Assembly (NCBI GenBank): GCA_035495215.1 | Contig: DATJGH010000137.1 | Span: 1 to 62,928 of the forward strand | Source of the DNA: Patescibacteria group bacterium | GTDB lineage: Bacteria > Chloroflexota > Limnocylindria > Limnocylindrales > CSP1-4 | Direction: 5' to 3' | DNA length: 62,928 bases | The notes under the pieces: generated by a model | Database searches by the model: none | Seen by the model: the letters and a program-made list of their open reading frames with translations, nothing else | What the model was told of the DNA's origin: nothing | Program-made: the position numbers and the translations under genes | Shown: one piece after another, positions 32,115 through 49,865 of the stretch | Numbering within the stretch: position 1 is the first letter of the stretch | How the letters are laid out: each line of letters opens with the position of its first letter

Positions 32115-32567
32115 GTGACCATCCAGCTCTCAGCCGATGTCATCGAACGGCGATTCGTGGAGCAGGAGCATCACCGGCTGCGGGCCGGTCTCTCGAACCT
32201 TCAGGACGCGCTCGAGGACGCGCATCGACTGAGCCAGCCCGAGATCATGGACCGGGTCGTCCGCTCGCTGACCTGGCTCCGTCGCGACGTGCTCCCGCAC
32301 GCCGCGTGGGAGGAGGCCTGGCTGTACGGCCACGTCGATTCCCAGGCCGGGACGCCCTGGGCGACGCGGGCGCTGCGTTTCGAGCACGAGCAGATCCGGG
32401 AGGTTGCCGCGGCCCTCGAGACGGAGTTCCAGACCGCCCACGAGCACTGGACCGTCGAGCAGGCGACGCGACTGGTGATCGCGCTGACCCGCCTCGAGAC
32501 GCTGATCTCGGCGCACCTCGCGCAGGAGGAGCGCATGGTCGTGCCGCTCCTGCAGGCGGCTGACTAG
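32115..32567 (+). CDS. hemerythrin HHE cation-binding domain protein
   Basis: 150 aa. AGGAGG RBS 6 nt upstream of the GTG. His/Glu pattern EHHRL .. HAAWEE .. FEHEQI .. HLAQEE spaced as in a four-helix hemerythrin-like bundle. Confidence 0.78.
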   Translation: MTIQLSADVIERRFVEQEHHRLRAGLSNLQDALEDAHRLSQPEIMDRVVRSLTWLRRDVLPHAAWEEAWLYGHVDSQAGTPWATRALRFEHEQIREVAAALETEFQTAHEHWTVEQATRLVIALTRLETLISAHLAQEERMVVPLLQAAD

Positions 32568-33040: not shown

Positions 33041-33127
33041 GGCCGCACCTCCTGCGTCGACCCTAGCCCTGCGTCGAGACCGCTGATACGGCCGTCCGGC
33101 CCGCGGCCACATGCCGATTGGGCCCTC

Positions 33128-34064: not shown

Positions 34065-35336
34065 ATGCGAATCGTCACGCCTGCCGAAGCGGTCGCCGGA
34101 ATCCGATCGGGCGAGCAGCTCTACCTGCATTGCGCCGCGGCGACGCCGTCCGTGCTCCTCGACGCCCTCGTGGCGCGCGCGCCCGAGCTGACCGACGTCC
34201 GCGTCGTTCACCTGCACTGCGAAGGTCCGGGGCCGCATCTCGCCCCCGAGATGGCGCCTCACTTCCGGCATCGCGCGTTGTTCGTCGGACCGAATGCGCG
34301 CGCCGCGGTGAACGAGGGCCGCGCCGACTACGTGCCAGTGTTCCTGTCGGACGTGCCCCGCCTGTTCGAATCCGGGATGCTCCCGCTCGACCACGTCTTC
34401 GTCAACGCGACCCCCCCGGACGCCCACGGCTTCTGCTCGCTGGGCACCAGCGTCGAAGCCATGCACGCCGCTATCAGAGCGGCTCGGACGGTCATCGTCC
34501 AGTTCAACCGGGCAATCCCGCGAACGCTCGGCGAGAGCTTCATCCATGTCGACGACATCGACCTCGGGATCGAATGCGACGTCCCGCCGTACGAGCACCG
34601 CAACGGTGGGATCGGGGAGGTCGAGCGGCGGATCGGCGGCTACGTCGCCGAGCTCATCCCCGACGGGGCGACGCTCCAGCTGGGGATCGGCGCGATCCCG
34701 GCCGCGGTCGGCGCCGCGCTCCACGGCAAGAAGGACCTGGGCGTGCACACCGAGATGTTCACGGACACCGTGGTCGACCTGGTCGAGGCCGGCGTCATCA
34801 ACGGCTCTCGCAAGGAACGGAACCGGGGCAAGATCGTCGCCGCGTTCATGCTCGGCACGAAACGCCTGTACGACTTCGCCAACGACAACCCGATGGTCGA
34901 GATGCGCTCGGTCGACTTCACCAACGACACCCACGTGATCCGATCGTTCGGCCGGATGGTGGCGATCAACTCCGCCATCGAGATCGACCTGACGGGCCAG
35001 ATCGTGGCCGACTCGATCGGCCACCGGATGTATTCCGGTGTCGGCGGCCAGATGGACTTCATCCGGGGTGCCACCCTCGCCGCCGAGGGCCAGGCGATCA
35101 TCGCGCTGCCCGCGACCGCCACTGCCGGGGCGCGGTCGCGCATCGTCGCCTCGCTGCAGGAGGGAGCGGGCGTCGTCACGACCCGAGCCCACGCCCGCAC
35201 CGTGGTCACCGAGCACGGCATCGCGGAGCTGTGGGGTCGATCGCTCCGGGAGCGGGCCAAGGCGCTCATCGCGATCGCCGAGCCGGCATTCCGCGACGAG
35301 CTGACGCGAGAGGCCCGCCGGCTCCACCTCGACTAG
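34065..35336 (+). CDS. acetyl-CoA hydrolase/transferase family (4-hydroxybutyrate CoA-transferase-like)
   Basis: 423 aa from MRIVTPAEAVAGIRSGEQLYLH. FVGPNARAAVNEGRADYVPVFLS, LQLGIGAIP, GVHTEMF, SGVGGQMDF motifs. Confidence 0.88.
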   Translation: MRIVTPAEAVAGIRSGEQLYLHCAAATPSVLLDALVARAPELTDVRVVHLHCEGPGPHLAPEMAPHFRHRALFVGPNARAAVNEGRADYVPVFLSDVPRLFESGMLPLDHVFVNATPPDAHGFCSLGTSVEAMHAAIRAARTVIVQFNRAIPRTLGESFIHVDDIDLGIECDVPPYEHRNGGIGEVERRIGGYVAELIPDGATLQLGIGAIPAAVGAALHGKKDLGVHTEMFTDTVVDLVEAGVINGSRKERNRGKIVAAFMLGTKRLYDFANDNPMVEMRSVDFTNDTHVIRSFGRMVAINSAIEIDLTGQIVADSIGHRMYSGVGGQMDFIRGATLAAEGQAIIALPATATAGARSRIVASLQEGAGVVTTRAHARTVVTEHGIAELWGRSLRERAKALIAIAEPAFRDELTREARRLHLD

Positions 35337-35353: not shown

Positions 35354-35375
35354 AGGTCCCGGCCCCTCGGGACCT
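35354..35375. terminator. 8-6-8 hairpin AGGTCCCG-GCCCCT-CGGGACCT, 18 nt after the CoA-transferase stop
   Basis: Read directly. Shares the GTCCCGG..TCGGGAC core with 27854-27875. It could instead be an operator for the downstream hydrogenase operon. Confidence 0.45.
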
Positions 35376-35454
35376 GTGGCCGCGCCGATAGGGCCGTCTG
35401 GCGCTCTCGCGGGAGGTGCCTCCCTCCTACGTTGATGGCGGAGGTACCTGCCTC

Positions 35455-35934
35455 ATGACCAGCGCCCCGATCGACTTCGCCGCTCCGGGGAGCGTGCTCG
35501 ACCATCTTTCCGGCTACGCCCGGGATCGACTCTCGCGCATCTCGCGGACCGAAACGTTCGAAGCAGGCGCCACGATCCTCGCGGAAGGCGGTCCGACGCT
35601 CTTCCTGGGCGTGGTCGAGTCGGGCCGGATCGCGCTCCGACTTCGGGTCCCCGAGCAGGGTGATCGCCTCACGATCCTGACCATCGAGCCGGGTGAGCTC
35701 TTCGGCTGGTCAGCGGTCGTGCCGCCGTACCGGGCCACGATCGACGCGATCGCGACCGAGCCGGCGACGGTCCTCGCGATCGATGCCCTGGAGCTGCGGA
35801 CGACGCTCGCGCGCGACTGCGACCTCGCGGCGGAGGTGCTGCCGCTCGTGCTCGAGTCGCTCGCAGCGCGCCTTGCCGGCAGCTGGCACCAGCTGCTCGA
35901 CCTGTTCGCGACCGGGACGCCGCAACCGTGGTGA
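35455..35934 (+). CDS. stand-alone cyclic-nucleotide-binding domain protein (no DNA-binding domain)
   Basis: 159 aa. GGAGG RBS 10 nt upstream. cNMP beta-barrel pattern FEAGATILAEGGP..LFLGVVESGRIAL..ELFGWSAVV. Its stop overlaps the next ATG (TGATG). Confidence 0.72.
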   Translation: MTSAPIDFAAPGSVLDHLSGYARDRLSRISRTETFEAGATILAEGGPTLFLGVVESGRIALRLRVPEQGDRLTILTIEPGELFGWSAVVPPYRATIDAIATEPATVLAIDALELRTTLARDCDLAAEVLPLVLESLAARLAGSWHQLLDLFATGTPQPW

Positions 35935-38003
35935 TGCCGGGCGACCCCCTGGCTCCGGGTCCGTCGCCGGGCGCCCCGCCGGCCGGCTGGGGCGAGGCGA
36001 CCCGATTCCTGCCGCGAGACCGCCTGGGCGACCTGATCGCGGCGCTGCGCGCGGCCGGACGGCGCGTCGTCGCCCCCGTGGTCGAGGACGGCGCATTGAA
36101 GATGGCCGAGATCGAGAGCCCGAACGAGCTGCCATTCGGCTGGACCGCGAAGTCCGAACCCGGCGTGGCCCGGCTGGTTCGGCAGCCCGCGGGGTCGCCG
36201 GGCGCCGATCGCGCCTTCGACAACGGTCCCGCATGGCGCGGCATCAAGCCCTGGACGTTCCCGGCCCGGGTGGAGTCGCTGGCCGTCGAGACCACCGCGG
36301 ACGGGCGCCTCGCCGTCCGAGTCGAGGCGCCGGCGCTGCAGCCAACCGCGGTGTTCGGCGCCCGTGCCTGCGACCTCGCCGCGCTCGCGGTCCATGACCG
36401 CGTCCTCGCGGACGGTCCCGCGGTGGATCCGGACTACGCAGCGCGCCGCGGCGACCTGTTCGTGGTCGCAGTCGAGTGTGCCCTGGCCACGTCGACCTGC
36501 TTCTGCACGTCGATGGGCACCGGGCCCGAGGTGACGACCGGCGCGGACATCGTGCTGAGCGAGGTCGACGGCGGATTCGTGGCTCGCTCCGAATCGGCCG
36601 CGGGCGCTCGGCTCCTCGACGGGCTCGCGCTCGACATCGCCATGCCCGCGCGCGTCGCGCAGGCCGCCGACCAGGTGGCGGCGACGCGGACCGCCATGGG
36701 CAACCCGGTGCAGGCGGCGGGCCTGCACGACCGGCTCCTGGCCAACCTCGACCATCCGCGCTGGGACGCGATCGCCGAGCGCTGCCTCGCCTGCGCGAAC
36801 TGCACCCTGGTCTGCCCGACCTGTTTCTGCACCGGGCTGGAGATCGGCTCGGACCTCGAAGGCCGCGAGTCGACCGCGACCCGGACCTGGGACAGCTGCT
36901 TCACCGCCGGCTTCGCCCAGGTCGCGGGCGGCGGCTCGTTCCGGCCCCGGCAACGGGATCGCTACCGGCAGTGGCTCACCCACAAGTTCGGGACGTGGTG
37001 GGACCAGTTCGGGACCTCGGGCTGCGTGGGCTGCGGCCGGTGCATCGCCTGGTGCCCGGTCGGGATCGACGTGCGCGAGGAGCTCGCGATCATCGCCGCC
37101 CCCGCCCTGGCGGACGCCGCGCCCGCCGCGCCTGCCGCGACGCGCCGGCACCCGGTGCTCCAGACAACGGTCGAGCCGGGCTCGGTCCGGACGGACTACG
37201 TGACTGTGAAGGTCACCGAGGTCCGCCCCGAGACCGCCGATACGACGACGCTCGTCCTGGCCACGGACGATCCGTCCCTTCTCGCCGCACGCCCGGGGCA
37301 GTTCGTGATGGTCGCGATGCCGGCCTTTGCCATCCCCCCGATCTCGATCTCGCGGATCCGGCCGGACGGGCTCGAGCTGACGATTCGCGCGGCCGGTCCG
37401 GCGACGTCGCTGCTGGCCAGGCTCCAGCCGGGCGCGCAGCTCGGCCTCCGCGGCCCCCTCGGCCGGCCGTGGCCGATCGAGGATGCAACGGGACGCGACG
37501 TCGTGATCGTCGGCGGCGGGATCGGCCTCGCCCCGCTGCGCGGCGTGATCGACGCGGTGCTCGCCGACCGGGACCGCTACGGGGCCGTCCGCGTCTACGC
37601 CGGCGCGCGCACGCCGCGCGACCGCCTGTTCGTGGCCCAGCTCGATGCCCTGTCCGCCCGAGACGACGTGGTCGTCCGGTCCACCGTGGACCGGGCCGGC
37701 GCGGACTGGCTCGGCCGGGTCGGGATCGTGACCCAGCTGTTCCCGACGCCGCAACCGGGGATCAGCGGCGCGAACGTCACTGCCTTCGTGTGCGGGCCCG
37801 AGCGGATGATGACGGCGACCGCCGATGCGCTCGTGGACCTCGGTGTCCCGGCGGACCACCTGTGGTTGACGCTCGAACGGCGGATGGAGTGCGGCGTGGG
37901 GCTGTGCGGCCACTGCCAGCTCGGAACGCGGTTCGTCTGTCGCGACGGGCCGGTGTTCTCGGTCGCGGAGCTCGGGCCGGACCTCCGGCGGGAGGGGTTG
38001 TGA
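35934..38003 (+). CDS. group 3b [NiFe]-hydrogenase beta (Fe-S, AsrA/HydB-like) and gamma (FAD/NAD(P)-binding, 2Fe-2S, HydG/PyrK-like) subunits fused in one polypeptide
   Basis: 689 aa. Cys clusters CFCTSMGTG, CLACANCTLVCPTCFC, GCVGCGRCIAWCP. Ala/Pro linker. Then a ferredoxin-reductase-type fold (RPGQFVMV, ISISR, VIVGGGIGLAPL) and C-terminal CGVGLCGHCQ. Confidence 0.87.
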   Translation: MPGDPLAPGPSPGAPPAGWGEATRFLPRDRLGDLIAALRAAGRRVVAPVVEDGALKMAEIESPNELPFGWTAKSEPGVARLVRQPAGSPGADRAFDNGPAWRGIKPWTFPARVESLAVETTADGRLAVRVEAPALQPTAVFGARACDLAALAVHDRVLADGPAVDPDYAARRGDLFVVAVECALATSTCFCTSMGTGPEVTTGADIVLSEVDGGFVARSESAAGARLLDGLALDIAMPARVAQAADQVAATRTAMGNPVQAAGLHDRLLANLDHPRWDAIAERCLACANCTLVCPTCFCTGLEIGSDLEGRESTATRTWDSCFTAGFAQVAGGGSFRPRQRDRYRQWLTHKFGTWWDQFGTSGCVGCGRCIAWCPVGIDVREELAIIAAPALADAAPAAPAATRRHPVLQTTVEPGSVRTDYVTVKVTEVRPETADTTTLVLATDDPSLLAARPGQFVMVAMPAFAIPPISISRIRPDGLELTIRAAGPATSLLARLQPGAQLGLRGPLGRPWPIEDATGRDVVIVGGGIGLAPLRGVIDAVLADRDRYGAVRVYAGARTPRDRLFVAQLDALSARDDVVVRSTVDRAGADWLGRVGIVTQLFPTPQPGISGANVTAFVCGPERMMTATADALVDLGVPADHLWLTLERRMECGVGLCGHCQLGTRFVCRDGPVFSVAELGPDLRREGL

Positions 38004-38941
38004 TGGCGCTTGCCATGCCGGAGCCCGGTCGAGTCCGGCGCGTCGCCGAGGCGCAGCGACCGCGGGTCGGTGTCGTCAAGTTCGCGTCGTGCGACGGCTG
38101 CCAGCTGACCATCCTCGATCTCGAGGACGAGCTGCTCGCCCTCACCGACCGCTTCGATTTCGTCGAGTTCGCCGAGGCAACGTCGAAGCGCTCGTCCGGC
38201 CCATTCGACGTCTTGTTCGTCGAGGGCTCCATCTCCACCCCGGAGCAGGCGGTCGAGATCGTTCGCCTGCGGGCGGTCACGAGGACGCTGGTCACGATCG
38301 GGGCGTGCGCCACCGTCGGCGGGATCCAGGCCCTGCGAACCGCCTCGGAACACGAGGCCTTCCGGTCGGCGGTGTACCCGTCGCCCGCGTTCGTCGACTC
38401 GCTCGTGGTCGCCTCGCCGATCGCCAGCCACGTCACCGTCGACCATGAGCTCCGCGGCTGCCCGATCGACGGACACCAGCTCGTCGAGCTGCTGACCTCC
38501 GTCGCCACGGGCCGGCGCCCCCAGCTGCCGGACCAGGCGGTGTGCCTCGAGTGCAAGCGGCGCGGGTACGAGTGCGTCGTCGTGACCCGCGGCGAGCCGT
38601 GCCTGGGGCCGGTCACGCAAACCGGTTGCGGCGCGATCTGCCCGGGCATGGGGCGCGGCTGCTACGGCTGCTTCGGGCCCCGGGAGGGTGCCAACGTCGA
38701 GTCGCTCGCCGGCTGGTACATGAACGGGCCGTCCGGGCCGCGGGCCGCGGTCGACGTGGGCCGCCTGTTCGCCGGCTTCACCGGCGCGAGCCCGGCCTTC
38801 CGCGCCATCACGGATCGGCTCGGCGGACGCCCGCCCCTGCCACTGCGGCCGGCGCTGGCCCACCCGCCCGAGCTCGTCCAGGAGGCGCTCCCCACGTGGG
38901 GGCCGCAACCGGCGGAGGAGGCTGTCGATGCACACGAGTGA
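38003..38941 (+). CDS. hyhS: [NiFe]-hydrogenase small (delta) subunit, group 3b type
   Basis: Last 312 codons of track ORF 36476-38941. FASCDGCQL, GACATVGGI, CLECKRRGYEC, GPVTQTGCGAICPGMGRGCYGCFGP. ATG overlaps the upstream TGA. Confidence 0.9.
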   Translation: MALAMPEPGRVRRVAEAQRPRVGVVKFASCDGCQLTILDLEDELLALTDRFDFVEFAEATSKRSSGPFDVLFVEGSISTPEQAVEIVRLRAVTRTLVTIGACATVGGIQALRTASEHEAFRSAVYPSPAFVDSLVVASPIASHVTVDHELRGCPIDGHQLVELLTSVATGRRPQLPDQAVCLECKRRGYECVVVTRGEPCLGPVTQTGCGAICPGMGRGCYGCFGPREGANVESLAGWYMNGPSGPRAAVDVGRLFAGFTGASPAFRAITDRLGGRPPLPLRPALAHPPELVQEALPTWGPQPAEEAVDAHE

Positions 38942-40232
38942 CCTCCGCTTCCAGGTCCAGAACCTGACCCGTGTCGAGGGCGAGGGGTCGCTGCACCTGA
39001 CGGTCCGGGACGGGCAGGTCAGCGAGGCGCGACTGCAGATCTTCGAGGCGCCGCGGTACTTCGAGGCGCTCGTGGTTGGCCGGACCCCGAACGAAGTCCT
39101 CGACATCGTGTCGCGCATCTGCGGCATCTGCCCCGTCGCCTACCAGATGAGCGCGGTCCACGCCTTCGAGGACCTGTTCGGCGTCGAGGTCGAGCCGGCG
39201 ACGCGGGCCCTCCGCCGGCTCCTGTACTGCGCCGAATGGATCGAGAGCCACGCCCTGCATATCTACCTCCTGCACGCCCCCGACTTCCTCGGCTACCCGA
39301 GCGCGGTGGAGCTCGCCCGGGACCATCGCCAGCTGGTCACGGATGGGCTGCGGCTCAAGCAGATCGGCAACCAGCTGCTGGCGCTCCTCGGTGGCCGCGC
39401 GATCCACCCGGTCAGCGTCCGCGTCGGCGGCTGGTCGCGAGCTCCGCGGCGAGCCCAGCTCACGGCGTTCGTCCCCGCCCTGCACGAGGCGCTCCAGCTC
39501 GCCCGTGCCACGGTCGACGTGGCGCTCACGCTCACGCCGCCCGAGTTCGAGCGCGAGCCGCGGCTCGTCGCGCTCCACCATCCGGGCGAATACCCGATGA
39601 ACGAGGGCCGGATCGTCTCTGATCGCGGGCTCAACCTCCCAGCGCAGTCCTGGCCCGAGGTCTTCCACGAGGTCCAGGTGCCCTGGTCGAATGCGCTCCA
39701 GGCCCGGGACGACAGCGGCCTGCCGTATCTCCTCGGGCCCGCCGCGCGGATCGTGCTCGATCACGACCAGCTTCATCCGCTGGCCAGGGAGGCGCTCGAG
39801 AGCAGCGGGGCGCTGGAGTCGATCCGGCGCAACCCATATCGAAGCATCGTTGCCAGGGGCATCGAGCTGGTGCAGGCCGCCGCGGACGCGCTCGACATCG
39901 TCGAGGCCTACCGGCCTCCGGAGGCACCGGCCGTCACCTGGGAGCCGCGGCCGGGCGTCGCGGCCTGGGCCACCGAGGCGCCGCGGGGACTCCTGTTCCA
40001 TCGCTACGAGGTCGGCGAGGACGGGCTCGTCGCGGCCGCGACGATCGTCCCCCCGACGTCGCAGAACCAGGCAGCGATCGAGGCCGACATCGCGCTGTTC
40101 GCGCCCCGCGTCCTGGGCCTGCCGATGGACGAAGCGACGCGCCGGCTCGAGCAGCTGATCCGGGCCTACGACCCGTGCATCTCCTGCGCGACGCACTTCC
40201 TGGACCTGTCGATCGATGGGGTGCCGGCATGA
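38928..40232 (+). CDS. hyhL: [NiFe]-hydrogenase large (alpha) subunit, group 3b type
   Basis: 434 aa. N-terminal RICGICPVAY (RxCGxC) and C-terminal DPCISCATH Ni-Fe ligand motifs. GGAGGAG RBS. Confidence 0.95.
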   Translation: MHTSDLRFQVQNLTRVEGEGSLHLTVRDGQVSEARLQIFEAPRYFEALVVGRTPNEVLDIVSRICGICPVAYQMSAVHAFEDLFGVEVEPATRALRRLLYCAEWIESHALHIYLLHAPDFLGYPSAVELARDHRQLVTDGLRLKQIGNQLLALLGGRAIHPVSVRVGGWSRAPRRAQLTAFVPALHEALQLARATVDVALTLTPPEFEREPRLVALHHPGEYPMNEGRIVSDRGLNLPAQSWPEVFHEVQVPWSNALQARDDSGLPYLLGPAARIVLDHDQLHPLAREALESSGALESIRRNPYRSIVARGIELVQAAADALDIVEAYRPPEAPAVTWEPRPGVAAWATEAPRGLLFHRYEVGEDGLVAAATIVPPTSQNQAAIEADIALFAPRVLGLPMDEATRRLEQLIRAYDPCISCATHFLDLSIDGVPA

Positions 40233-40729
40233 ACGCGCCGGCGCCGGTGATCCGGCTGCTCGTCTGCGGCAATGCCGATCGGGGCGACGACGGCGCTCCG
40301 CTGTGCGCGGTCGCCCATGTGCTGCCGCGCCTCGACGCCTCGCTGCGCGGGCTGCTCGAGGTACGCCGTTGCGAGCAGCTGGACGCGACCGACCTCATCG
40401 ACGTCGCCCCCGGCGAGGCGTGCCTGATCCTCGACACGGTCGTCGGGGTGGAGCCCGGGGCGATCGTCGAGCTCTCGCTCGAGGACCTCGCGCTGCAGCC
40501 GACGGTCACGCCGCGGTCATCCCACGCCCTGCCGATCAGCCAGGTCCTCGGCATCGCCCGGTCCGTGCGCGGCTCCCTCCCGCGCGGCACGTTCGTCGGC
40601 ATCGGCGGCAAGTGGTTCGGGTTCGGCGAAGTCCGGTCACGTGCGCTGCGCGAGGGCATGGACGATTTCGAGCGGGCGATCACGGCGGCGATCGCGGCAC
40701 TTGCGACGCCACAGGAGGTTGCCGGCTGA
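40229..40729 (+). CDS. hydrogenase maturation endopeptidase (HycI/HoxW family)
   Basis: 166 aa from MNAPAPVIRLLVCGNADRGDDGAP (GNxxxGDDG motif), SSHALP. ATGA overlap with the hyhL stop. Confidence 0.85.
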   Translation: MNAPAPVIRLLVCGNADRGDDGAPLCAVAHVLPRLDASLRGLLEVRRCEQLDATDLIDVAPGEACLILDTVVGVEPGAIVELSLEDLALQPTVTPRSSHALPISQVLGIARSVRGSLPRGTFVGIGGKWFGFGEVRSRALREGMDDFERAITAAIAALATPQEVAG

Positions 40730-40803
40730 CGGGGCCGACCGGACCCCGCCCTTGGGGCCACTGGTCCCTTCGTTCGGCGCCGCAAGTGGCCGACCATCAG
40801 CAC

Positions 40804-42210
40804 ATGAGCGCATCGAGGCCACCGCTGCAGCCACGCTACCCGGGCATCCCGGCGATCGTCGACGGCTCCGAGGCCGTCGCCCACGTCGAGACCCGGCTCG
40901 CCGAGGTCGCCTGCGTCTACCCGATCACGCCGTCGACGACGATGGCCGCGATCTACCAGGCGGCCGTGGCGGACGGCCGGACCGACCTGTGGGGCACCCA
41001 CCTGCGCTTCATCGAGCCGGAGTCGGAGCACTCCTCGGCCTCCGCGGCGGAGGGCGCCGCGCTGGCGGGCGCGCGGGTCACCAACTTCACCGCTGGCCAG
41101 GGCCTGGTGCTGATGAAGGAGGTCCTGTACGTCATCAGCGGCAAGCGGCTGCCGGCCGTCTTCCACGTCGGCGCGCGGGCGCTGACGAGCCAGGCGCTCA
41201 ACATCCACGCCGGCCACGACGACGTGATGGCCGTGGCCGACTGCGGCTGGGGCATCCTGTTCGCCCGGAACGCCCAGGAGGCGGCGGACCTCGCGGCGAT
41301 CGCGCGCCGGGTCGCCGAGCTGACCGAGACGCCGTTCATGGTCGCGCAGGACGGCTTCCTGACGACCCACACGCTCGAGAACGTCCGGCTGCCCGAGGAC
41401 GAGCTGCTGCGCGAGTTCGTCGGCGACCCGCGCCAGCACGTGCGTGACCTGTTCGACCCGGCCGAGGCGCTGATGACCGGCGTCGTCCAGAACCAGGACA
41501 GCTACATGAAGGGCCGGATCGGCCAGCGGGCGTACACCGACAGGACCCACGGCGCGCTCGAGGGCGCGATGGCCGAGTGGACCGAGCTGACCGGCCGAGA
41601 GGTCCGGCCGGTGAGCACGTACCGGACCGAGGGCGCCCGCGAGATCCTGATCGCGATGGGCACGATCGCCGACACCGCGATCGCGGTCGTCGACCATCTC
41701 CGCGAGGCTGGCCGGCCGGTCGGGTGCATCGCGCTGACGGCGTTCCGGCCGTTCCCGGCCCTCGCCCTGGCCGAGGCCATCGGCGACGCCCGCGCGGTCG
41801 CGGTCGTCGAGCGGACGGATGAGCCGCTCGCCGCGGCCAACCCGCTTACGCGCGAGATTCGGGCAGCCCTGTACGACGCCGCCGCCGAGGGCGAGATGGT
41901 TCCCCGGGTGCGGTCCTACGTCGCCGGCCTCGGCTCGCGGGACGTCTCGGCGGGCGACCTGGTCGCCGTCTTCGACGATATCGCGGACCGCGCAGAGGTG
42001 AGCGATCGAGTCCGGGTCCTGGGCATCCGCCATCCCCTGGCGCTGCCCTCGACGTCGATCGACCTCCGGCCCCCAGGCGCCTACTCCATGCGCGGTCACT
42101 CGATCGGCGGGTTCGGCTCCGTCACGACCAACAAGCTCGTCGCCACGCTCGTCGGCGAGCTCTTCGACAAGCAGGTCCAGGCCTACCCGCGCTACGGATC
42201 GGAGAAGTAG
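40804..42210 (+). CDS. pyruvate/2-oxoacid:ferredoxin oxidoreductase, domains I-II plus the first ~40 residues of domain III (gamma), ending at an in-frame TAG
   Basis: AIVDGSEAVAHVE..VYPITPST..EHSSASAAEGAALAGAR..QGLVLMKE (alpha/domain I), then ..GHSIGGFGSVTTNKLVATLVG..AYPRYGSEK followed by TAG at 42208-42210. Confidence 0.85.
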   Translation: MSASRPPLQPRYPGIPAIVDGSEAVAHVETRLAEVACVYPITPSTTMAAIYQAAVADGRTDLWGTHLRFIEPESEHSSASAAEGAALAGARVTNFTAGQGLVLMKEVLYVISGKRLPAVFHVGARALTSQALNIHAGHDDVMAVADCGWGILFARNAQEAADLAAIARRVAELTETPFMVAQDGFLTTHTLENVRLPEDELLREFVGDPRQHVRDLFDPAEALMTGVVQNQDSYMKGRIGQRAYTDRTHGALEGAMAEWTELTGREVRPVSTYRTEGAREILIAMGTIADTAIAVVDHLREAGRPVGCIALTAFRPFPALALAEAIGDARAVAVVERTDEPLAAANPLTREIRAALYDAAAEGEMVPRVRSYVAGLGSRDVSAGDLVAVFDDIADRAEVSDRVRVLGIRHPLALPSTSIDLRPPGAYSMRGHSIGGFGSVTTNKLVATLVGELFDKQVQAYPRYGSEK

Positions 42211-42774
42211 GGCCTGCCGACGACCTACTACCTGACCATTGCGGACGCCCCGATTCGCGTGCACGCGGAGCTCGATCAGGTCGACTTCGTGCCGCTCCAC
42301 GACGTCTCGGCGTTCGATCTCGGAAACCCGCTCGCGGGTCTCGTCGACGGCGGCGACCTGTTCATCCAGTCGCCGCTCGCCGCGCCGGAGGCCATCTGGG
42401 CCTCGATCCCGGCGGACGCGCGCGCGGAGATCCTGGCGCGGAGCATCCGGGTGACCGCGCTCGACACCGCCGCCCTCGCCGTCCGCCACTCGCCGCGGCC
42501 GGATCTCGTGATCCGGATGCAGGGCGTGGCGCTGGTCGGGGTCTTCCTGCGCGTCGCGCCGTTCGCGGCGGCCGCGGGCATGGGTCGGCACCAGCTCCTG
42601 GAGGCGGTTGGCGAGCGGCTCGGGCGCTTCTTCGGCAAGCGCGGCACGAACGTCGTCCGCGCGAACCTCGCGGTCATCGGCGAGGCATGGGACGGGCTGA
42701 TCGATGTGACGGCTGCGATCGGCGGTCTCGAGACGGCAAAGCCGGTGCTGGAACGAGCGGGGGTGCTGCTGTGA
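42211..42774 (+). CDS. remainder of the PFOR gamma domain, same frame as the preceding ORF immediately after the TAG
   Basis: Codons after the TAG read GLPTTYYLTIADAPIRVHAELDQVDFVPLHD.., continuing the conserved GxE(K/R)xGxP..R(I) gamma-subunit motif. The first in-frame start (GTG 42259) would omit conserved residues. Confidence 0.7.
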   Translation, partial: GLPTTYYLTIADAPIRVHAELDQVDFVPLHDVSAFDLGNPLAGLVDGGDLFIQSPLAAPEAIWASIPADARAEILARSIRVTALDTAALAVRHSPRPDLVIRMQGVALVGVFLRVAPFAAAAGMGRHQLLEAVGERLGRFFGKRGTNVVRANLAVIGEAWDGLIDVTAAIGGLETAKPVLERAGVLL

Positions 42775-43211
42775 ATGAGGCGCATGGGTCCGAAGGCTCG
42801 CCGATCGTGGCCGACCGGATGGCCCGAACCCCGATCCTGATCCAGGCTGACGCCACGCTCACCGAGGCGGCCGGAATGATGGACCGCAACCATGTCCACG
42901 GCCTGCCGGTCATCGATCCCGACGGCACGCTCGTCGGCGTGCTGTCCCAGACCGACCTCAACCGCGCCCGCGCGACGGAGTACCTGTGGGTCAACTGGCC
43001 CGGGCTGTCGGTGCGCCACCTCATGACCAGCCCGGCCGTGACCATCCATCGCTCGACCCCGCTGATCGTCGCGGCGCGGAAGATGGAGCAGCTCGGGATC
43101 CACCGCCTCGTCGTGGTCGAGGACGGCGACGAGACGACGCCGATCGGAGTCCTGTCGATGAGCGACCTGATCCACGCCCTCGCCGAGGAGACGGACGGGG
43201 GTCGAGCCTGA
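42771..43211 (+). CDS. CBS-pair domain protein
   Basis: 146 aa. Two CBS motifs (HGLPVIDPDGTLVGVLSQTDL and HRLVVVEDGDETTPIGVLSMSDL). GTGA overlap upstream and TGATG overlap downstream. Confidence 0.8.
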   Translation: MNEAHGSEGSPIVADRMARTPILIQADATLTEAAGMMDRNHVHGLPVIDPDGTLVGVLSQTDLNRARATEYLWVNWPGLSVRHLMTSPAVTIHRSTPLIVAARKMEQLGIHRLVVVEDGDETTPIGVLSMSDLIHALAEETDGGRA

Positions 43212-44977
43212 TGTCCGAGCTGCTGGCCAAGGGCATCGGCGAGGTCAAGGAGGCCCACGACAGCCGCCTGCTGGCGGCAGCGCCGCCGCTGCTCGACATG
43301 GATGCCTACGTCGAGGAGTTCGGCCGCAGCGTCGTACCCGCCTACCGGCGGGGCATCGCCGATCGCGAGCTGCCCGCGGACGTCGGGCTCGCCCGCAGCG
43401 TCATCCCACCCGGGACGGCGGCGACGCGCGACTTCAGCCATCTGGCGCCGCGAATCCCGGAGCTGCTCGCGGAGCGCTGCGTCGGCTGCATGGCCTGCGT
43501 GAACGCGTGTCCCGACTCGGCGATCCTGGCGACGGTCGTGCCGGCGCCGGAGCTGGAGGGCCGGATCGCGACCTTCGCGGCCTCGACCGACGATCCGGCG
43601 CGCGCCGTTGCCACGGCCCGCAGCCATTTCGCCGACACGCAGAAGTACGGCGAGGTCCCTGCCCGCCGCGGACTGGACCGCGGCTCGTTCGGCCTCTTTG
43701 TCGATCCCGGCCACTGCAAGGGCTGCGGCGAATGCGTCGAGGTCTGCTCCGCGCTGGGTCACGACGCCCTGTTCATGCTCGACAAGGTCGCCGAGGAGCT
43801 GCCCCTGGCGGCTCCGCTCGCGGCGGCCGATCCGGCTCCCGTGACCGCGCCGACGGCACCCGCCGAAGGCCCTCTCTTGGACGAGCACATCACGGTCCAC
43901 GCCGCCGCCGAGTCGACGCTCGATCGATTCCGCCGCGACATGGCGTTCTATCGGACGCTTCCGCCGACGCCGAGCGAGTACCGCAACGAGAAGGCCCTGG
44001 CGGACGTGATGCTCGGCGAGTTCGCCTTCGGCTACGTCGGTGGCGCGGGGTCGTGCGCCGGCTGCGGCGAGGCGACGGCGATCCGGATGCTGGTGGCCGC
44101 GACGCGACAGGTCCACGGCCCGGAATCGATGGGCATCGTCGCCGCGACGGGCTGCAACACGGTCTTCGGCAGCACCTATCCGTTCAATCCCTATCGCGTG
44201 CCCTGGACCAACTCGCTGTTCGAGAACGCGCCGGCCGTCGCGCTCGGCGTCCGGGCCCGCTGGGACGCGGCCGGCCATCCCGAGCGGCGCCTGTGGGTGC
44301 TGGGCGGCGACGGCGCGATGTACGACATCGGCTTCCAGTCGCTGTCGCGGATGGTCGCGTCCGGGGCGGATATCAAGGTCCTCGTCCTCGACACGCAGGT
44401 CTACTCGAACACCGGCGGGCAGGCGTCCACGGCGACGTTCGGCGGCCAGGTGACCAAGATGTCGGCGTTCGGCAAGGAGCTGCACGGCCGCCCGGAGCGA
44501 CGCAAGGAGCTCGGCCGGATCCTGATGGCGCACGGCGAGGTCTACGTCGCCCAGACGACGCCCGCCCACCTGAACCACTTCTACCGGGCCGTCATGGACG
44601 CCAACGAGTACCCCGGGCCGGCGGTGATCGTGTGCTACGCGGCGTGCATGCCCGAGCACGGTATCGCCGACGACGCGGCCACCGCGCAGGCGAAGCTCGC
44701 CGTCGAGTCGCGGGCGTTCCCCCTGTACACGTATGACCCGCGGCGCGGGCCCTCGATGGCCGAGCGGCTCTCGCTCCAGGGCAACCCCGCGCTTCGCGAC
44801 GACTGGTCGAAGCAGCCCGATGGGGCGCCCGTGGACTTCCTGGCGTTCGCCCGCTCGGAGGGCCGCTTCGCCGGCCACTTCGGCCCAGACGGCTCGCGCA
44901 CCCCGGAGATCCTCGCGACCCAGGACGACCGGCTCGCCAACTGGCGCGGCCTCCAGGAGCTCGCCGGGCTGTCCTGA
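43211..44977 (+). CDS. PFOR domains IV-V-VI (2x[4Fe-4S] ferredoxin domain plus TPP-binding beta domain)
   Basis: 588 aa. CVGCMACVNACP and CKGCGECVEVC cluster motifs. TPP region GAGSCAGCGEATAIR, GGDGAMYDIGFQSL, VLDTQVYSNTGGQ. Confidence 0.9.
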   Translation: MSELLAKGIGEVKEAHDSRLLAAAPPLLDMDAYVEEFGRSVVPAYRRGIADRELPADVGLARSVIPPGTAATRDFSHLAPRIPELLAERCVGCMACVNACPDSAILATVVPAPELEGRIATFAASTDDPARAVATARSHFADTQKYGEVPARRGLDRGSFGLFVDPGHCKGCGECVEVCSALGHDALFMLDKVAEELPLAAPLAAADPAPVTAPTAPAEGPLLDEHITVHAAAESTLDRFRRDMAFYRTLPPTPSEYRNEKALADVMLGEFAFGYVGGAGSCAGCGEATAIRMLVAATRQVHGPESMGIVAATGCNTVFGSTYPFNPYRVPWTNSLFENAPAVALGVRARWDAAGHPERRLWVLGGDGAMYDIGFQSLSRMVASGADIKVLVLDTQVYSNTGGQASTATFGGQVTKMSAFGKELHGRPERRKELGRILMAHGEVYVAQTTPAHLNHFYRAVMDANEYPGPAVIVCYAACMPEHGIADDAATAQAKLAVESRAFPLYTYDPRRGPSMAERLSLQGNPALRDDWSKQPDGAPVDFLAFARSEGRFAGHFGPDGSRTPEILATQDDRLANWRGLQELAGLS

Positions 44978-45107: not shown

Positions 45108-45701
45108 ATGCAGCAATCGTTCGGTCAGCGCCCTGTGGCCGCGCCCGCCATCCTGGGCTTCCTGCTCATCGCCGTCGGCGCGATCGTCCTGCTCGCGCAG
45201 GAGATCGGCTTCGACGTGTTCGGGCAGATCGGGGCGTGGGGCTGGCCGCTGTTCGTCATCGTGCCCGGCCTCCTGCTCCTCGTGGCGGCCCTCCTGCCGA
45301 GCCCGCCTCGGGGCATCGGCTTCGCGATCGCCGGGGCGATCGTCACCACGGTCGGTGCGTTGCTCCTGTACCAGTCACGGACCGGGCACTGGGAAAGCTG
45401 GGCGTACGCCTGGGCGCTGATCCCGATGGCCGCCGGCGTGGCGCTCATCGCGTATGGGCTGTACTCGCGGTCGTCGAGCATGGTCCGGGGCGGGACGTGG
45501 ATGGCCGGCATCGCGGCGCTCATGCTGGCGATCGGCGCATGGTTCTTCGAGGCCCTTTTTGCCGGAGGCATTCGACCAGAGCTCGGTGAGTGGTGGCCGA
45601 TCGCGATCGTCGCGCTTGGCGCCGTCATCGTGCTCCGCGCCATGTTCACCGGCGATCGACGGCGCGAGGGAGCGCCGAAGCAGCCTGGCACCGGGGCCTG
45701 A
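45108..45701 (+). CDS. integral membrane protein (5-6 TM), unknown function
   Basis: AAGGAGG RBS. 197 aa of hydrophobic helices. Trimmed from track ORF 44733-45701. Confidence 0.68.
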
Positions 45702-45765: not shown

Positions 45766-48159
45766 GTGCCACGATCCATTACGGTCGAGGCCACCCGGCT
45801 CCACCCCGAGGCGCTTCGCCAGATCGATGTGTGGTGGCGGGCGGCCAACTACCTGTCCGTCGGCCAGATCTACCTGCTCGACAACCCGCTGCTGCGCGAG
45901 CCGCTGAGGCCAGAGCACGTCAAGCCGAGGCTGCTCGGCCATTGGGGCACGACGCCGGGCCTGAACCTGCTCTACGCGCACCTGAACCGGTGCATCCGTG
46001 AGCGCGACCTGGCCATGCTGTTCATCACCGGTCCCGGGCACGGCGGGCCGGGCATGGTCGCGAACGCATACCTCGAAGGGACCTACAGCGAGGTCTATCC
46101 GCGGATCTCGCAGGACGAGGCGGGCCTGCGCCGCCTGTTCCGCCAGTTCAGCTTCCCGGGCGGGGTGCCGAGCCACGACTCGCCGGAGCGCCCCGGCTCC
46201 ATCCACGAAGGCGGCGAGCTCGGCTACTCGCTGATGCACGCCTACGGCGCCGCGTTCGACAACCCGGACCTGGTGGTCGCGTGCGTGATCGGCGACGGCG
46301 AGGCCGAGACGGGCCCGCTGGCCACGAGCTGGCATTCGAACAAGTTCCTCGACCCGACCCGCGACGGCGCCGTCCTGCCCGTGCTGCACCTGAACGGCTA
46401 CAAGATCGCCAACCCCACGGTCCTCGCCCGGATCCCGGAGCCGGAGCTGGTCAAGCTGCTCGAGGGGTATGGCCACCGGGTCCTCGTGGTCGCGGGCGAC
46501 GAGCCGGACGCCGTCCACGAGGCGCTCGCGGCGGCGCTCGACGACGCGCTCGACGACATCGCCGCGATCCAGGCCGAAGCCAGGCGGTCGCGCGACGGCG
46601 GGCGACGACCCGCATCAACGAGACCCAGCTGGCCGATGATCGTCCTGCGCACGCCGAAGGGCTGGACCGGGCCGCGCGAGGTCGACGGGGTCCAGGTCGA
46701 GGACACCTTCCGGTCCCACCAGGTACCCGTCTCGAACGCTCGGGGCGACGCCGAGCACCGCCAGATCCTCGAGGACTGGCTCCGAAGCTATCGGCCCGAC
46801 GAGCTGTTCGACGCTGCCGGGCGGCCCCGACCCGAGCTGGCCGCGCAGGCGCCGGCCGGCGACCGGCGCATGAGCGCGAGCCCGCACGCCAACGGCGGGC
46901 TGCTCCTGCGCGACCTGGCCCTGCCCGACTTCCGGCGCTACGCGGTCGACGTCCCGACGCCCGGCGCCACGACCGCGGAGGCAACGCGCGTCCTGGGCGG
47001 GTACCTGCGCGACACCATCCGGGCGAACGCGACGACCTTCCGCCTCTTCGGGCCGGATGAGACCGCGTCGAACCGGCTGGATGCCGTGTTCGAGGCGACG
47101 GACAAGACGTGGAACAACGGCCTGCTGCCGATCGACGTCGATCTCGCCCCGGACGGGCGGGTGATGGAGGTCCTGTCCGAGCATCTCTGCCAGGGCTGGC
47201 TCGAGGGCTACCTGCTGACGGGCCGGCACGGCCTGTTCAACTGCTACGAGGCGTTCATCCACATCATCGACTCGATGTTCAACCAGCACGCCAAGTGGTT
47301 GAAGGTCACGCGCACCCTGGCCTGGCGCAAGCCCATCGCGTCGCTCAACTACCTGCTCTCGAGCCACGTGTGGCGCCAGGATCACAACGGCTTCAGTCAC
47401 CAGGATCCGGGCTTCATCGACCACGTCGTGAACAAGAAGGCCGAGGTCATCCGGGTCTACCTGCCGCCCGACGCGAACACCCTCCTCAGCGTCGCCGATC
47501 ACTGCCTCCGGAGCCGGAGCTACGTCAACGTCATCGTCGCCGGCAAGCAGCCGTCGCTGTCCTGGCTGTCGATGGACCAGGCGATCGCGCACTGCGAACG
47601 AGGCGCGGGCATCTGGGGCTGGGCGTCGAGCGACGCCGGCGGCGAGCCGGACGTCGTCCTCGGCTGCTGTGGCGACGTGCCCACGCTCGAGACGCTCGCG
47701 GCGGTCGACATCCTGCGCCGGGAGCTGCCCGACCTCCGCGTTCGCGTGGTCAACGTCGTCGACCTGATGCGGCTCCAGCAGAGCGGCGAGCATCCCCACG
47801 GCATGACCGACGCCGAGTTCGACGCGCTGTTCACCACCGACCGACCGATCGTGTTCGCGTACCACGGCTATCCGTGGCTGATCCACCGCCTGACCTACCG
47901 GCGGGCGAACCACGACAACCTGCACGTCCGCGGCTACAAGGAGGAGGGCACGACGACGACGCCGTTCGACATGGTCATGCTCAACGACCTCGACCGGTTC
48001 CACCTCGTGATGGACGTGATCGATCGGGTGCCCGGCCTCGCCGACCGCGCGGGGCACGTGCGCCAGCTGATGGTCGACTCCCGGGCGCGCGCCCGGGCCT
48101 GGACGCGCGAGCACGGCGAGGACCTGCCGGAGGTTCGCGACTGGACCTGGCCGGGCTAG
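45766..48159 (+). CDS. xfp: xylulose-5-phosphate/fructose-6-phosphate phosphoketolase
   Basis: [68 protein letters not shown] 45766 gives 797 aa. Confidence 0.93.
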
Positions 48160-48173: not shown

Positions 48174-49259
48174 GTGCGGATCCTCGTCGTCAACGCGGGC
48201 TCGAGCAGCCTGAAGCTGCGGCTCCTCGGCGAGGGCGATGCGCCCCTGGCCGCCGCGGACCTGCCGCCGGGGGTCGCGGACGCGAGCCTCGCCGAGGCGC
48301 TGGACCGGTTCGGGCGAGTCGATGCGGTGGGGCACCGGATCGTCCACGGCGGGGTCGAGTTCCGGGACCCGGTCATCGTCGACGACGGCCTCGTCGCCCG
48401 CATCGCGGCCCTCGGCGAGCTCGCCCCGCTCCATCAGCCCGCGGCCGTGGCCGCGCTGCGAGCGGCAAGGACCGCGCTGCCCGCGGTGCCCCACGTTGCG
48501 TGCTTCGACACGGCGTTCCACGCCAGGCTTCCGCCGGCGGCGGCGACCTATGCGCTTCCCGCGGCGTGGCGGGGGCGCTTCGGGCTGCGCCGGTTCGGCT
48601 TCCACGGCCTGTCCCACGCGCACGCCTCGCGGCGCGCAGCCGAGCTTCTCGGTCGCGCGGAGGCAGACGTGCACTGCATCACCTGCCATCTCGGCGCCGG
48701 TGCCTCCCTCGCGGCGGTGCGCGGCGGGCGCTCCGTGGACACCACGATGGGCTTCACGCCACTGGAGGGCCTCGTCATGGCGACGCGGTCGGGGAGCGTC
48801 GATCCGGGCCTGCTGCTCTGGCTCCAGCAGCGGGCCGGCGTCGCCGTCGACGAGCTCGCCGACGGCCTCGAGCATCGCTCCGGCCTGACCGGCCTGGCCG
48901 GCACCGCGGACATGCGCGAGGTGCTGCGCCGGGCCGCGGCCGACGACGCGGCAGCGGTGCTCGCGCGCGACGTCTACGTCCACCGGCTCAGCGCGGGGAT
49001 CGCGGCCATGGCCGCGGCGCTGCCTCGAGTCGACGCGGTCGTGTTCACCGGCGGGGTCGGCGAGAACGCGGCGGAGATCCGCGCGCGAGCCCTCGCCGGC
49101 GTGCCCTTCCTCGCCGTCGAGCTGGACGCCGAGGCCAACATGCGCGGCTCCGGGGATCGGGTGATCGGGCTGGCGGGCGACTCCTCCACCCGAGCCCTCG
49201 TCGTCTCCAGCCGCGAGGATCTCGAGATCGCCCGCCAGGTCCGATCCGTCCTCGCCTAG
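48174..49259 (+). CDS. ackA: acetate kinase
   Basis: VRILVVNAGSSSLK, GHRIVHGG, FDTAFH, FHGLSH, CHLGAGAS, EGLVMATRSGSVDPG, FTGGVGEN. Confidence 0.92.
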   Translation: MRILVVNAGSSSLKLRLLGEGDAPLAAADLPPGVADASLAEALDRFGRVDAVGHRIVHGGVEFRDPVIVDDGLVARIAALGELAPLHQPAAVAALRAARTALPAVPHVACFDTAFHARLPPAAATYALPAAWRGRFGLRRFGFHGLSHAHASRRAAELLGRAEADVHCITCHLGAGASLAAVRGGRSVDTTMGFTPLEGLVMATRSGSVDPGLLLWLQQRAGVAVDELADGLEHRSGLTGLAGTADMREVLRRAAADDAAAVLARDVYVHRLSAGIAAMAAALPRVDAVVFTGGVGENAAEIRARALAGVPFLAVELDAEANMRGSGDRVIGLAGDSSTRALVVSSREDLEIARQVRSVLA

Positions 49260-49809: not shown

Positions 49810-49865
49810 CCTGGATGCCTCCCTGCAGGATGGGTGCGCCGCCACGCGGCGGCGCACCCAGTCCC

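Follow-up and report, generated by a model that had tools for sequence, protein, structure and literature searches.

Group 3b [NiFe]-hydrogenases are widespread in aerobic soil bacteria, and the source of the electrons for their hypoxic H2 production is unsettled. A candidate source is suggested by a 62,928-nt metagenomic contig of a soil Chloroflexota (DATJGH010000137.1; hereafter the window, meaning the whole stretch of DNA analyzed), in which a hydrogenase of this kind (Hyh) is encoded directly upstream of a pyruvate:ferredoxin oxidoreductase (PFOR, por genes). Do the two enzymes form one path from pyruvate to H2, and what would switch them on? We find two adjacent same-strand units, cNMP-hyhBG-hyhS-hyhL-protease and porA-CBS-porB (cNMP, cyclic nucleoside monophosphate; Table 1), in an island that also carries homologs of the DosS/T kinases and the DosR regulator. 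With moderate confidence we read them as co-regulated parts of one DosR-type low-oxygen or redox-stress island that would serve fermentative maintenance metabolism.

Genes were called from G+C at third codon positions (GC3) and from translations, which reproduced the gene chain of an initial annotation made from the DNA letters, and proteins were identified with Pfam and NCBIfam profiles and by their best PDB matches. For comparison we took 80 GTDB species-representative loci with a window-type PorA (L-numbered below), nearly all of them Chloroflexota metagenome-assembled genomes (MAGs) named Limnocylindria or Limnocylindrales, and surveyed synteny by tblastn of the window proteins against all fetched loci. 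The window itself is labeled "Patescibacteria group bacterium" at NCBI, a group whose G+C is generally low. Because its G+C is 68-75% over its whole length (~71% overall) and its closest relatives are Limnocylindria-type Chloroflexota, this label is doubtful, and both observations indicate a mislabel or mis-binning. The window's HyhL (38928-40232) is identical in sequence to HTK45477.1, from a public TPA MAG contig. A foreign origin of the island was also considered and has no compositional signal in its favor (GC 0.68-0.75 all along).

The hydrogenase is a group 3b enzyme headed by a cNMP-domain protein

The gene order and the hydrogenase gene identities proposed initially were confirmed by Pfam and NCBIfam, and the assignment to group 3b agrees with the best PDB matches. 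The large subunit HyhL aligns over its full length with the alpha subunit of Pyrococcus furiosus sulfhydrogenase I (SHI; 9nez, 9e15) and with the Thermococcus kodakarensis 3b enzyme (5yxy) at E-values of 2e-65 to 6e-64, as against 2.5e-46 for Mvh (group 3c) and 5e-43 for an NAD-reducing group 3d enzyme; the next-best group is worse by about 20 orders of magnitude. Its translation contains the motifs RICGICP (CxxC) and DPCISCATH (DPCxxCxxH), the latter followed by an 11-aa tail, and its best NCBIfam models, ShyA and HydA, both score under their equivalog cut-offs. By its best matches, motifs and partner modules, the hydrogenase is a group 3b [NiFe] enzyme of the Hyh/sulfhydrogenase type.

The beta and gamma subunits are fused into one chain, with Fer4_22 at residues 283-378, NAD_binding_1 at 526-630 and DHODB_Fe-S_bind at 648-680. 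The NCBIfam models ShyB/HydB align to residues 135-387 and HydG/ShyC to 425-677, making the beta half AsrA/ShyB-like and the gamma half PyrK/AsrB-like and HydG/ShyC-like. Since the HyhG half retains an intact dinucleotide-binding motif, GGGIGLAP (read in the translation), a link to NAD(P) is still expected. The maturation protease follows hyhL in relatives too (gene tables of the P0004 contig, L001 and L002). Three loci, L008 (6902), L033 (7689) and L048 (4980), have a protease homolog between the acetyl-CoA hydrolase gene and porA and no detected hyhBG, hyhS or hyhL; this lone gene could be what is left of an hyh cassette since deleted, or its protease could serve another purpose.

The protein heading the unit was initially described as a cNMP-binding protein without a DNA-binding domain. 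This holds: cNMP_binding is the sole Pfam domain in its 159 residues, with no helix-turn-helix (HTH) or other DNA-binding domain among the Pfam hits, and its PDB matches are weak and only to the effector domains of CRP/FNR proteins. A cNMP-domain-only protein stands at the head of hyh in every relative carrying hyh. At the expected place of the phosphate-binding cassette, the sequence is FGWSAVVPPYRATIDA; by eye, Trp replaces Glu after the Gly, and Ala, not Ser/Thr, follows the Arg, and the ligand may therefore be one other than cAMP or cGMP. An adenylate/guanylate cyclase fused to an AAA_16 ATPase domain and, after it, a TPR protein are encoded at 2095-5477 (-), 30 kb from the cNMP gene, and the cyclase is a possible source of a nucleotide signal.

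PFOR is a two-subunit enzyme whose porA gene carries an isolated stop codon

PorA comprises PFOR domains I-II-III and PorB domains V and VI, the latter with a GDG...NTGGQ motif read in the translation; Pfam detected neither domain IV nor domain VII in the window's PorA or PorB. The best PDB match of PorB is the Desulfovibrio africanus PFOR (7plm/1b0p, E 2.5e-45), and 6cin, named a pyruvate-ferredoxin oxidoreductase, matches as well. TIGR02176 aligns to all three PFOR pieces of the window. The best curated or solved matches are PFORs throughout (TIGR02176, PorA_Arch, 1b0p, 6cin), with all NCBIfam scores under the equivalog cut-offs.

The initial annotation counted four PFOR-related open reading frames (ORFs) and called the enzyme fragmented. 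The PFOR identity stands; two of the four ORFs are halves of one gene cut by an in-frame TAG, and one encodes a CBS-pair protein. Read through the TAG, which lies inside domain III (...YPRYGSEK*GLPTTYYLT...), PorA retrieved 5929 homologs, the best 120 of which are 79-93% identical. Nearly all of these 120, and all close relatives examined, are one chain of ~640-680 aa with POR_N, PFOR_II and POR; uninterrupted homologs measure 646-681 aa, typically ~656 aa. Fragmentation is thus not a trait of the family, and a TAG at 42208-42210 was found in this contig only. In an alignment of 16 homologs, the stop takes the place of a Lys that never varies, in the equally invariant block YPRYGSEKKGLPTTYYLT, and the TAG falls inside the invariant motif GSEKKGLPTTYY. 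The motif was found in 78 relatives, every one with a sense codon at this position (AAG in 74, AAA in 2, CAG in 2). The two closest relatives, L085 and L086, have AAG and differ from the window at few other positions in a 101-nt stretch, mostly third-codon positions. Conservation of the post-TAG fragment, of the CBS gene and of porB matches that in other relatives, and no other gene near porA is broken; the long acetyl-CoA hydrolase ORF simply starts at 34065.

We give next to no credence to the idea that the interruption is biologically meaningful, as a programmed split, readthrough or TAG recoding. Such an idea can draw on a TAG in place of a lysine codon, followed by a frame that is fully conserved (GC3 0.91), but the sense codon in 78 of 78 relatives, including the AAG of the two closest, speaks against it, as does the position of the stop inside domain III and within GSEKKGLPTTYY. 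TAG is also an ordinary stop in the window, ending 11 of its 54 other genes, and a restart at GTG 42259 would remove 16 conserved residues. Because the relatives are intact with a sense codon, TAG is an ordinary stop, the downstream genes are conserved and no nearby gene is broken, the split is, on this comparison, a single A-to-T change, either a nonsense mutation of very recent date or an erroneous base in the metagenome assembly, and does not reflect architecture. The true PFOR architecture, as judged from the relatives, is two subunits, PorA (I-II-III) and PorB (V-VI), with a CBS-pair gene between them; tblastn detected this CBS gene in 74 of 82 loci of the PorA family.

Three other proposals were rejected. 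Pyrrolysine or another recoding of TAG is ruled out by the TAG-terminated genes of the window and the AAG of relatives, and decay of the island with multiple pseudogenes by the seemingly gene-free stretch 33041-33827, which holds an intact ortholog of the L001 gene at 2348-3127. An orthology of the CBS protein to Rv2626c/Hrp1 is unsupported, as generic CBS proteins alone passed the 1e-8 cut-off. Directly after porB, three relatives encode a second, four-subunit (delta-alpha-beta-gamma type) 2-oxoacid:ferredoxin oxidoreductase (L001 15690-18398, L002 14088-16895, L004 6119-8965), and L004 additionally encodes a membrane-type [NiFe]-hydrogenase that includes a cytochrome b subunit. Neither enzyme is found at this position in the window.

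hyh and por are linked in one clade and separable outside it

The initial annotation described a single translationally coupled chain from the cNMP gene to porB. All of its seven junctions were recovered: TGATG at 35932-35936 and 38001-38005, a 14-nt overlap at 38928-38941, ATGA at 40229-40232, the TAG at 42208-42210, GTGA at 42771-42774 and TGATG at 43209-43213. Six of the junctions in the hyh-por chain are stop/start overlaps of a kind ordinary in operons and not unusual in themselves. Between the protease and porA there is, as had been noted, a gap of 74 nt (40729 stop to 40804 ATG). The conserved same-strand association of hyh with por is upheld; the continuous chain is not, since this gap contains two conserved boxes.

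Linkage was scored in the 53 informative loci, whose sequence reaches 5.5 kb or more upstream of porA. Of these species, 21 have cNMP-hyhBG-hyhS-hyhL-protease immediately upstream of porA on the same strand, and the share falls with PorA N-terminal identity to the window: 14 of 22 loci at 80% or above (the closest clade), 6 of 14 at 75-80% and 1 of 17 below 75%. Loci with the linkage are nearly all from Limnocylindria-type Chloroflexota, and the order recurs in five more loci whose flanks are short. Synteny between the two gene sets among relatives, as anticipated initially, is thus real. Gene tables of the P0004 contig, L001, L002, L004, L085 and L086 repeat the order of the window; in several of these relatives the shared order reaches as far as the genes for the LiaF-like protein, phosphoketolase and acetate kinase. 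In loci without hyh, porA-CBS-porB is usually still linked to the GAF kinase, the LuxR-type regulator and the acetyl-CoA hydrolase/transferase. The tblastn synteny makes por the conserved core, with the hyh cassette placed between the hydrolase gene and porA in one large sub-clade, and the occurrence of the por cluster without hyh in most distant relatives marks PFOR as independent of Hyh.

The spacing between protease and porA varies from a 4-nt overlap in at least three relatives (L001, L007 and L011), through gaps of 8 nt (L009) and, measured between tblastn matches, 8 nt (L005) and 32 nt (L014), to 74-190 nt in many loci and ~2 kb in L015, L019, L025, L050 and L076. The ~2-kb insert of L050 contains ORFs matching HypC, EamA and DUF6390. 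In L020 and L079, hyh is nearby on the opposite strand. Judged by its junctions, the window's hyh-por is not one continuous coupled chain; the loci of L001, L007 and L011 do qualify as a single operon.

This mixture of close linkage and independence bears on two other readings. One is that the units are neighbors only, co-induced in a stress island without being electron partners: Hyh would re-oxidize NAD(P)H (e.g. from malic enzyme), and PFOR would feed ferredoxin or flavodoxin to other sinks. The island indeed has many unrelated DosR-type genes (universal stress proteins, hemerythrin, CBS-BON, P-type ATPase), por has boxes of its own and frequently occurs without hyh, and hyh lies on the other strand in L020 and L079. 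We nevertheless find this rather unlikely, as the linkage has been tightened repeatedly, to gene overlap, in several species, and hyh is placed precisely between the acetyl-CoA hydrolase gene and porA and nowhere else in the island.

The other reading, which we hold to be decidedly unlikely, takes the linkage further: PorAB, together with the CBS protein, would dock onto the fused HyhBG, and the ferredoxin domain of PorB would pass electrons into the FeS chain of HyhB, with neither free ferredoxin nor NAD(P) in between, forming a soluble "pyruvate hydrogenlyase". In a variant, Hyh would confurcate reduced ferredoxin and NAD(P)H, making H2 evolution favorable. The adjacency is selected, up to the protease/porA overlap of three loci, HyhB and HyhG make up one chain in this clade but not in Mycobacterium smegmatis or Pyrococcus, and the island has no ferredoxin:NADP reductase gene. 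Direct coupling would also resolve the thermodynamic problem of H2 evolution from NAD(P)H raised in PMC3341082 and, if true, would explain how NAD(P)-type group 3b enzymes of aerobes evolve H2 against thermodynamics in hypoxia. Against it, HyhG keeps the NAD(P)-binding GGGIGLAP and NAD_binding_1, porA-CBS-porB has an unchanged architecture in the many relatives without hyh, no docking domain or Por-Hyh fusion was seen, and operon adjacency by itself is no proof of a complex.

Both units carry DosR-like boxes, and the island encodes a DosS/T-DosR-like pair

The two boxes in the 74-nt gap are 23 nt apart. The one nearer porA (40755-40768) is both a strict match to the palindrome GGGCC-N4-GGCCC and the top position weight matrix (PWM) match of the whole 63-kb window, with a score of 13.5. 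Both have been conserved in L085, in L086 and in loci whether or not these carry hyh, and alignments show both boxes, together with an ACCATC element just before the porA ATG, as conserved in non-coding DNA. Among relatives the palindrome recurs 70-130 nt upstream of porA, often in tandem with copies 22-23 nt apart. Of 78 loci, 42 have a strict box in the 250 nt ahead of porA (13 of the 26 that carry hyh and 29 of the 52 that lack it), compared with a background of 0.028 per 250 nt, an enrichment of ~20-fold. Intergenic DNA makes up ~10.6% of the window, yet every one of its 4 strict matches and 11 of its 15 top PWM matches fall there.

Upstream of the cNMP gene, two degenerate boxes stand 22 nt apart in a region conserved in L085, L001, L005 and L014, and 11 of 20 loci have a strict box at this position. 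No strict box was found upstream of the acetyl-CoA hydrolase gene in 36 loci or upstream of XFP in 7 loci, and loci in which protease and porA overlap or nearly touch have no box at that junction. Further intergenic boxes lie at 1605-1618, 27847-27860, 31607-31620, 32051-32064, 33089-33102, 45078-45091, 53653-53666 and 54886-54899. Nearby genes include a 232-aa gene without a Pfam match (27027-27725, -), a universal stress protein gene (27878-28345, -), the hemerythrin, LiaF-like and malic enzyme genes, and a universal stress protein gene at 54984. The distribution of boxes suggests that the regulon comprises some ten transcription units or more within the window.

Because the gap boxes also occur upstream of porA in relatives without hyh, they imply that por has a promoter of its own. 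Of the two features by which the initial annotation would have divided the chain, a separate promoter or a terminator in the gap, the boxes imply the first, and a consensus scan found none of the second. The RNA fold of the 74-nt gap is no more stable than that of shuffled sequences (z = -0.64), and since it has neither a terminator-like site nor an unusually stable fold, read-through from hyh into por is also possible. The center of the proximal box is 42.5 nt upstream of the porA ATG, GACCAT is conserved at -12 to -7, and no Shine-Dalgarno sequence precedes porA; given this arrangement, the porA mRNA may be leaderless, from a class-II-type DosR promoter. Spacing is similar upstream of the cNMP gene, with a box center at 35397.5, TACGTT at 35428-35433 and GGAGG at 35440-35444. 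A scan of 33-46 kb for sigma-70 consensus promoters found none, which is uninformative at 71% GC.

About 4 kb upstream of the hyh unit, the island encodes a sensor kinase and a response regulator. The GAF domain of the kinase has its best PDB matches in the heme GAF-A domains of DosT and DevS (2vzw, E 4e-39, and 2w3d/2y8h; range E 4e-39 to 8e-37). The regulator matches Mycobacterium tuberculosis DevR (3c3w) over its full length at E 3e-56 and is 79-94% identical across linked relatives. By these matches the pair are true DosS/T and DosR homologs, with GGGCC-N4-GGCCC as the predicted variant operator.

A model for hypoxic fermentation

The sequence comparisons show the gene identities, the synteny, the conservation of the boxes and the homology to DosS/T and DosR. 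We infer that both units would be induced in hypoxia, with flux running from pyruvate to H2 and electrons moving through soluble pools. When O2 falls, the heme-GAF kinase would activate the DosR-like regulator, which would bind tandem GGGCC-N4-GGCCC boxes before each unit and before the hemerythrin and LiaF-like genes. PFOR would then oxidize pyruvate, from glycolysis or the neighboring malic enzyme, yielding acetyl-CoA and CO2 and reducing ferredoxin or flavodoxin. Acetyl units would be converted to acetate and ATP via the CoA-transferase/hydrolase, phosphoketolase and acetate kinase, and Hyh would vent surplus reductant as H2 by way of the NAD(P)H pool. The window encodes no enzyme for the step from ferredoxin to NAD(P).

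Several points weigh against this model. Production of H2 from NAD(P)H is thermodynamically unfavorable (PMC3341082). The Pfam-annotated neighborhood in the window contains no ferredoxin:NAD(P) oxidoreductase or Nfn-type gene, so the gap between ferredoxin and NAD(P) pools noticed initially is real. Most distant relatives have the PFOR cluster without hyh (present in 1 of 17 loci below 75% identity), and the cNMP-upstream boxes of the window are degenerate, with one mismatch each. The pyruvate specificity of PFOR is read from its best matches alone, and the TAG may leave the enzyme dead in this strain. The proposal of a dedicated pyruvate-to-H2 module is likewise unsupported: nothing marks the genes as a self-contained module, and they lie within a larger DosR-type island.

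Should the two-unit, DosR-type model be right, uncultured Chloroflexota, mostly environmental MAGs, would offer a testable electron-source candidate, with hydrogenase and PFOR side by side and apparently under one DosR-type switch. It would also extend the DosR dormancy paradigm beyond Actinomycetota, with a predicted operator and promoter geometry.

Neighboring genes and the direction of flux

Around the two units the island holds genes for acetate and pyruvate metabolism (Table 1). The LiaF-like gene also follows porB in the P0004 contig, L001, L085 and L086, and the order phosphoketolase-acetate kinase is common to L005, L006, L007, L014, L085 and L086. The Flavodoxin_5-domain protein is a candidate low-potential carrier, with a paralog between the acetyl-CoA hydrolase and cNMP genes of the P0004 contig. 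Malic enzyme, which would yield pyruvate and NAD(P)H, is found in the neighborhood of L001, L002 and the P0004 contig too. The island further contains two universal stress proteins, a CBS-BON protein, two additional CoA-transferase genes and a P-type ATPase.

PFOR is reversible in principle. The pathway might accordingly run the other way, with Hyh consuming H2 to produce NADPH and PorAB working as a pyruvate synthase, joining CO2 to acetyl-CoA. Enzymes of group 3b work in both directions, and in Pyrococcus SHI has been proposed to recycle H2 to NADPH (PMC3341082). This direction is very improbable here, as electrons at the level of NADPH cannot reduce ferredoxin for pyruvate synthesis without bifurcation and no bifurcating enzyme is encoded nearby, while phosphoketolase, acetate kinase, CoA-transferase, the DosR system and the universal stress proteins all point to a catabolic survival metabolism.

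Other genes were noted alongside. A same-strand run at 58572-62671 comprises HypC, an EamA transporter, DUF6390, an ArsR-type HTH protein and four DsrE/TusA sulfur-relay genes, and in L002 ArsR, TusA and DsrE come after the HypC-EamA-DUF6390 trio; DUF6390 might act as a factor associated with the hydrogenase; alternatively, the sulfur-relay genes might be tied to sulfhydrogenase activity. At 28342-29634 (-), beside a gene for a universal stress protein and a short way upstream of the DosS/T-like kinase, lies a 430-aa multicopper oxidase (Cu-oxidase_3 + Cu-oxidase_2), which could be a copper nitrite reductase-like enzyme of the same hypoxia island. Two well-coded genes, at 8136-10430 (+; 764 aa) and 14776-16086 (+; 436 aa), have no Pfam match at E <= 1e-4.

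Table 1. The hyh and por units, their putative operator boxes and other genes of the island (positions in the window).
Feature	Position	Strand	Basis and remarks
DosS/DosT-like sensor kinase, GAF + HisKA_3 + HATPase, 381 aa	29757..30902	+	Pfam
DosR/DevR-like response regulator, REC + LuxR/GerE HTH	30899..31594	+	Pfam
Hemerythrin-domain protein	32115..32567	+	Pfam; strict box in front at 32051-32064
Acetyl-CoA hydrolase/CoA-transferase	34065..35336	+	Pfam; start by tblastn against the 423-aa L001 ortholog, 86% identity
Two degenerate DosR-like boxes upstream of the cNMP gene	35369..35404	+	GGGACCTGTGGCCG 35369-35382, GGGCCGTCTGGCGC 35391-35404; 22 nt apart; PWM 3.1 and 10.9
Stand-alone cNMP-binding-domain protein, 159 aa	35455..35934	+	PF00027, E 2e-11
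HyhB-HyhG fusion (FeS + FAD/NAD(P)/[2Fe-2S] diaphorase), 689 aa	35934..38003	+	Pfam, NCBIfam
HyhS (delta) small subunit	38003..38941	+	PF01058 (Oxidored_q6); best NCBIfam ShyD, E 1e-47
HyhL (alpha) [NiFe] large subunit	38928..40232	+	PF00374 (NiFeSe_Hases); best NCBIfam ShyA
Hydrogenase maturation endopeptidase	40229..40729	+	TIGR00072, E 6e-12, 45.8 bits against a cut-off of 47.45 (borderline)
Two DosR-like boxes in the 74-nt gap	40732..40768	+	GGGCCGACCGGACC 40732-40745, GGGCCACTGGTCCC 40755-40768; 23 nt apart
porA, PFOR domains I-II-III (POR_N, PFOR_II, POR)	40804..42774	+	Pfam; in-frame TAG 42208-42210
CBS-pair protein between porA and porB	42771..43211	+	PF00571 two copies, E 2e-28
porB, two-[4Fe-4S] ferredoxin domain V + thiamine pyrophosphate (TPP) domain VI	43211..44977	+	2x Fer4 + TPP_enzyme_C
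LiaF-TM-like membrane protein	45135..45701	+	Pfam; box in front at 45078-45091
Phosphoketolase	45766..48159	+	Pfam XFP_N/XFP/XFP_C
Acetate kinase	48174..49259	+	Pfam Acetate_kinase
Flavodoxin_5-domain protein	49282..49869	-	Pfam
Malic enzyme	51829..53577	-	Pfam
HypC maturation chaperone, then EamA and DUF6390	58572..58838	+	PF01455, E 5e-18

Comparison with known systems

Among characterized systems, M. smegmatis Hyh (Hyd3, msmeg_3931-3927) lies in a DosR cluster (msmeg_3926-3955) and is induced in hypoxia with POR/KOR, ferredoxin and ferredoxin-NADP reductase (PMC2799521); it evolves H2 fermentatively in hypoxia (bioRxiv 10.1101/2023.09.11.557286). The model for the window follows the logic put forward for this mycobacterium, a known survival strategy by fermentation that would here be hard-wired. 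Like the hydrogenase of the window, it is a group 3b enzyme of beta, gamma, delta and alpha subunits with a dedicated peptidase, encoded next to a DevR/DosR two-component system. The link of Hyd3 to ferredoxin-dependent enzymes is one of co-expression only: the POR/KOR genes (msmeg_4645-4646) lie elsewhere, whereas in the window PFOR is adjacent to the hyh operon and in some species overlaps it. Beta and gamma are separate in this actinomycetotal enzyme, while in the Chloroflexota locus they are fused and a cNMP protein heads the operon.

The closest solved homologs of HyhL belong to P. furiosus SHI, an NADP(H)-linked enzyme of four modules. A route from pyruvate through POR, ferredoxin, ferredoxin:NADP oxidoreductase (FNOR), NADPH and SHI to H2 is biochemically possible in Pyrococcus, although SHI is thought mainly to recycle H2 (PMC3341082). 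Its beta and gamma subunits are separate and not under DosR control, in contrast to the fused chain and DosR-type boxes of the window. To our knowledge, the SHI genes of Pyrococcus have not been described as clustered with POR.

The window PFOR has catalytic domains I, II, III, V and VI, as well as its TPP motif and cluster cysteines, in common with single-chain bacterial PFOR (1b0p/7plm, 6cin) and four-subunit archaeal PorABDG, and differs from both in having two subunits, a CBS-pair gene between them and the premature stop. A precedent for direct transfer is the pyruvate:NADP+ oxidoreductase of Euglena and Cryptosporidium, in which PFOR passes electrons to an NADP-binding flavoprotein module without free ferredoxin, by a covalent P450-reductase-like fusion; no such fusion of Por and Hyh was seen in the window.

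On the regulatory side, the M. tuberculosis DosS/T-DosR system likewise pairs a heme-type GAF kinase with a NarL-family regulator. DosS and DosT have two GAF domains each, and one was detected in the 381-aa window kinase. The window boxes resemble those of M. tuberculosis DosR in often being tandem, ~22 nt apart, and in preceding universal stress protein, hemerythrin, hydrogenase and further stress genes. The M. tuberculosis consensus is TTSGGGACTWWAGTCCCSAA (PMC2275270). Consensus and window box are both 5-4-5 palindromes whose cores differ at the fourth position, the mycobacterial half-sites being GGGAC/GTCCC and those of the window GGGCC/GGCCC. Unlike the M. tuberculosis DosR regulon, the predicted window regulon includes PFOR, phosphoketolase and acetate kinase. 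We found no paper describing the hyh-por arrangement; the literature covered was limited, and this absence is weak evidence. Compared with the systems above, the differing elements are the physical linkage of hyh and por up to gene overlap, the beta-gamma fusion, the cNMP head gene, the CBS gene inside the PFOR operon and a DosR-type regulon with a variant operator in Chloroflexota.

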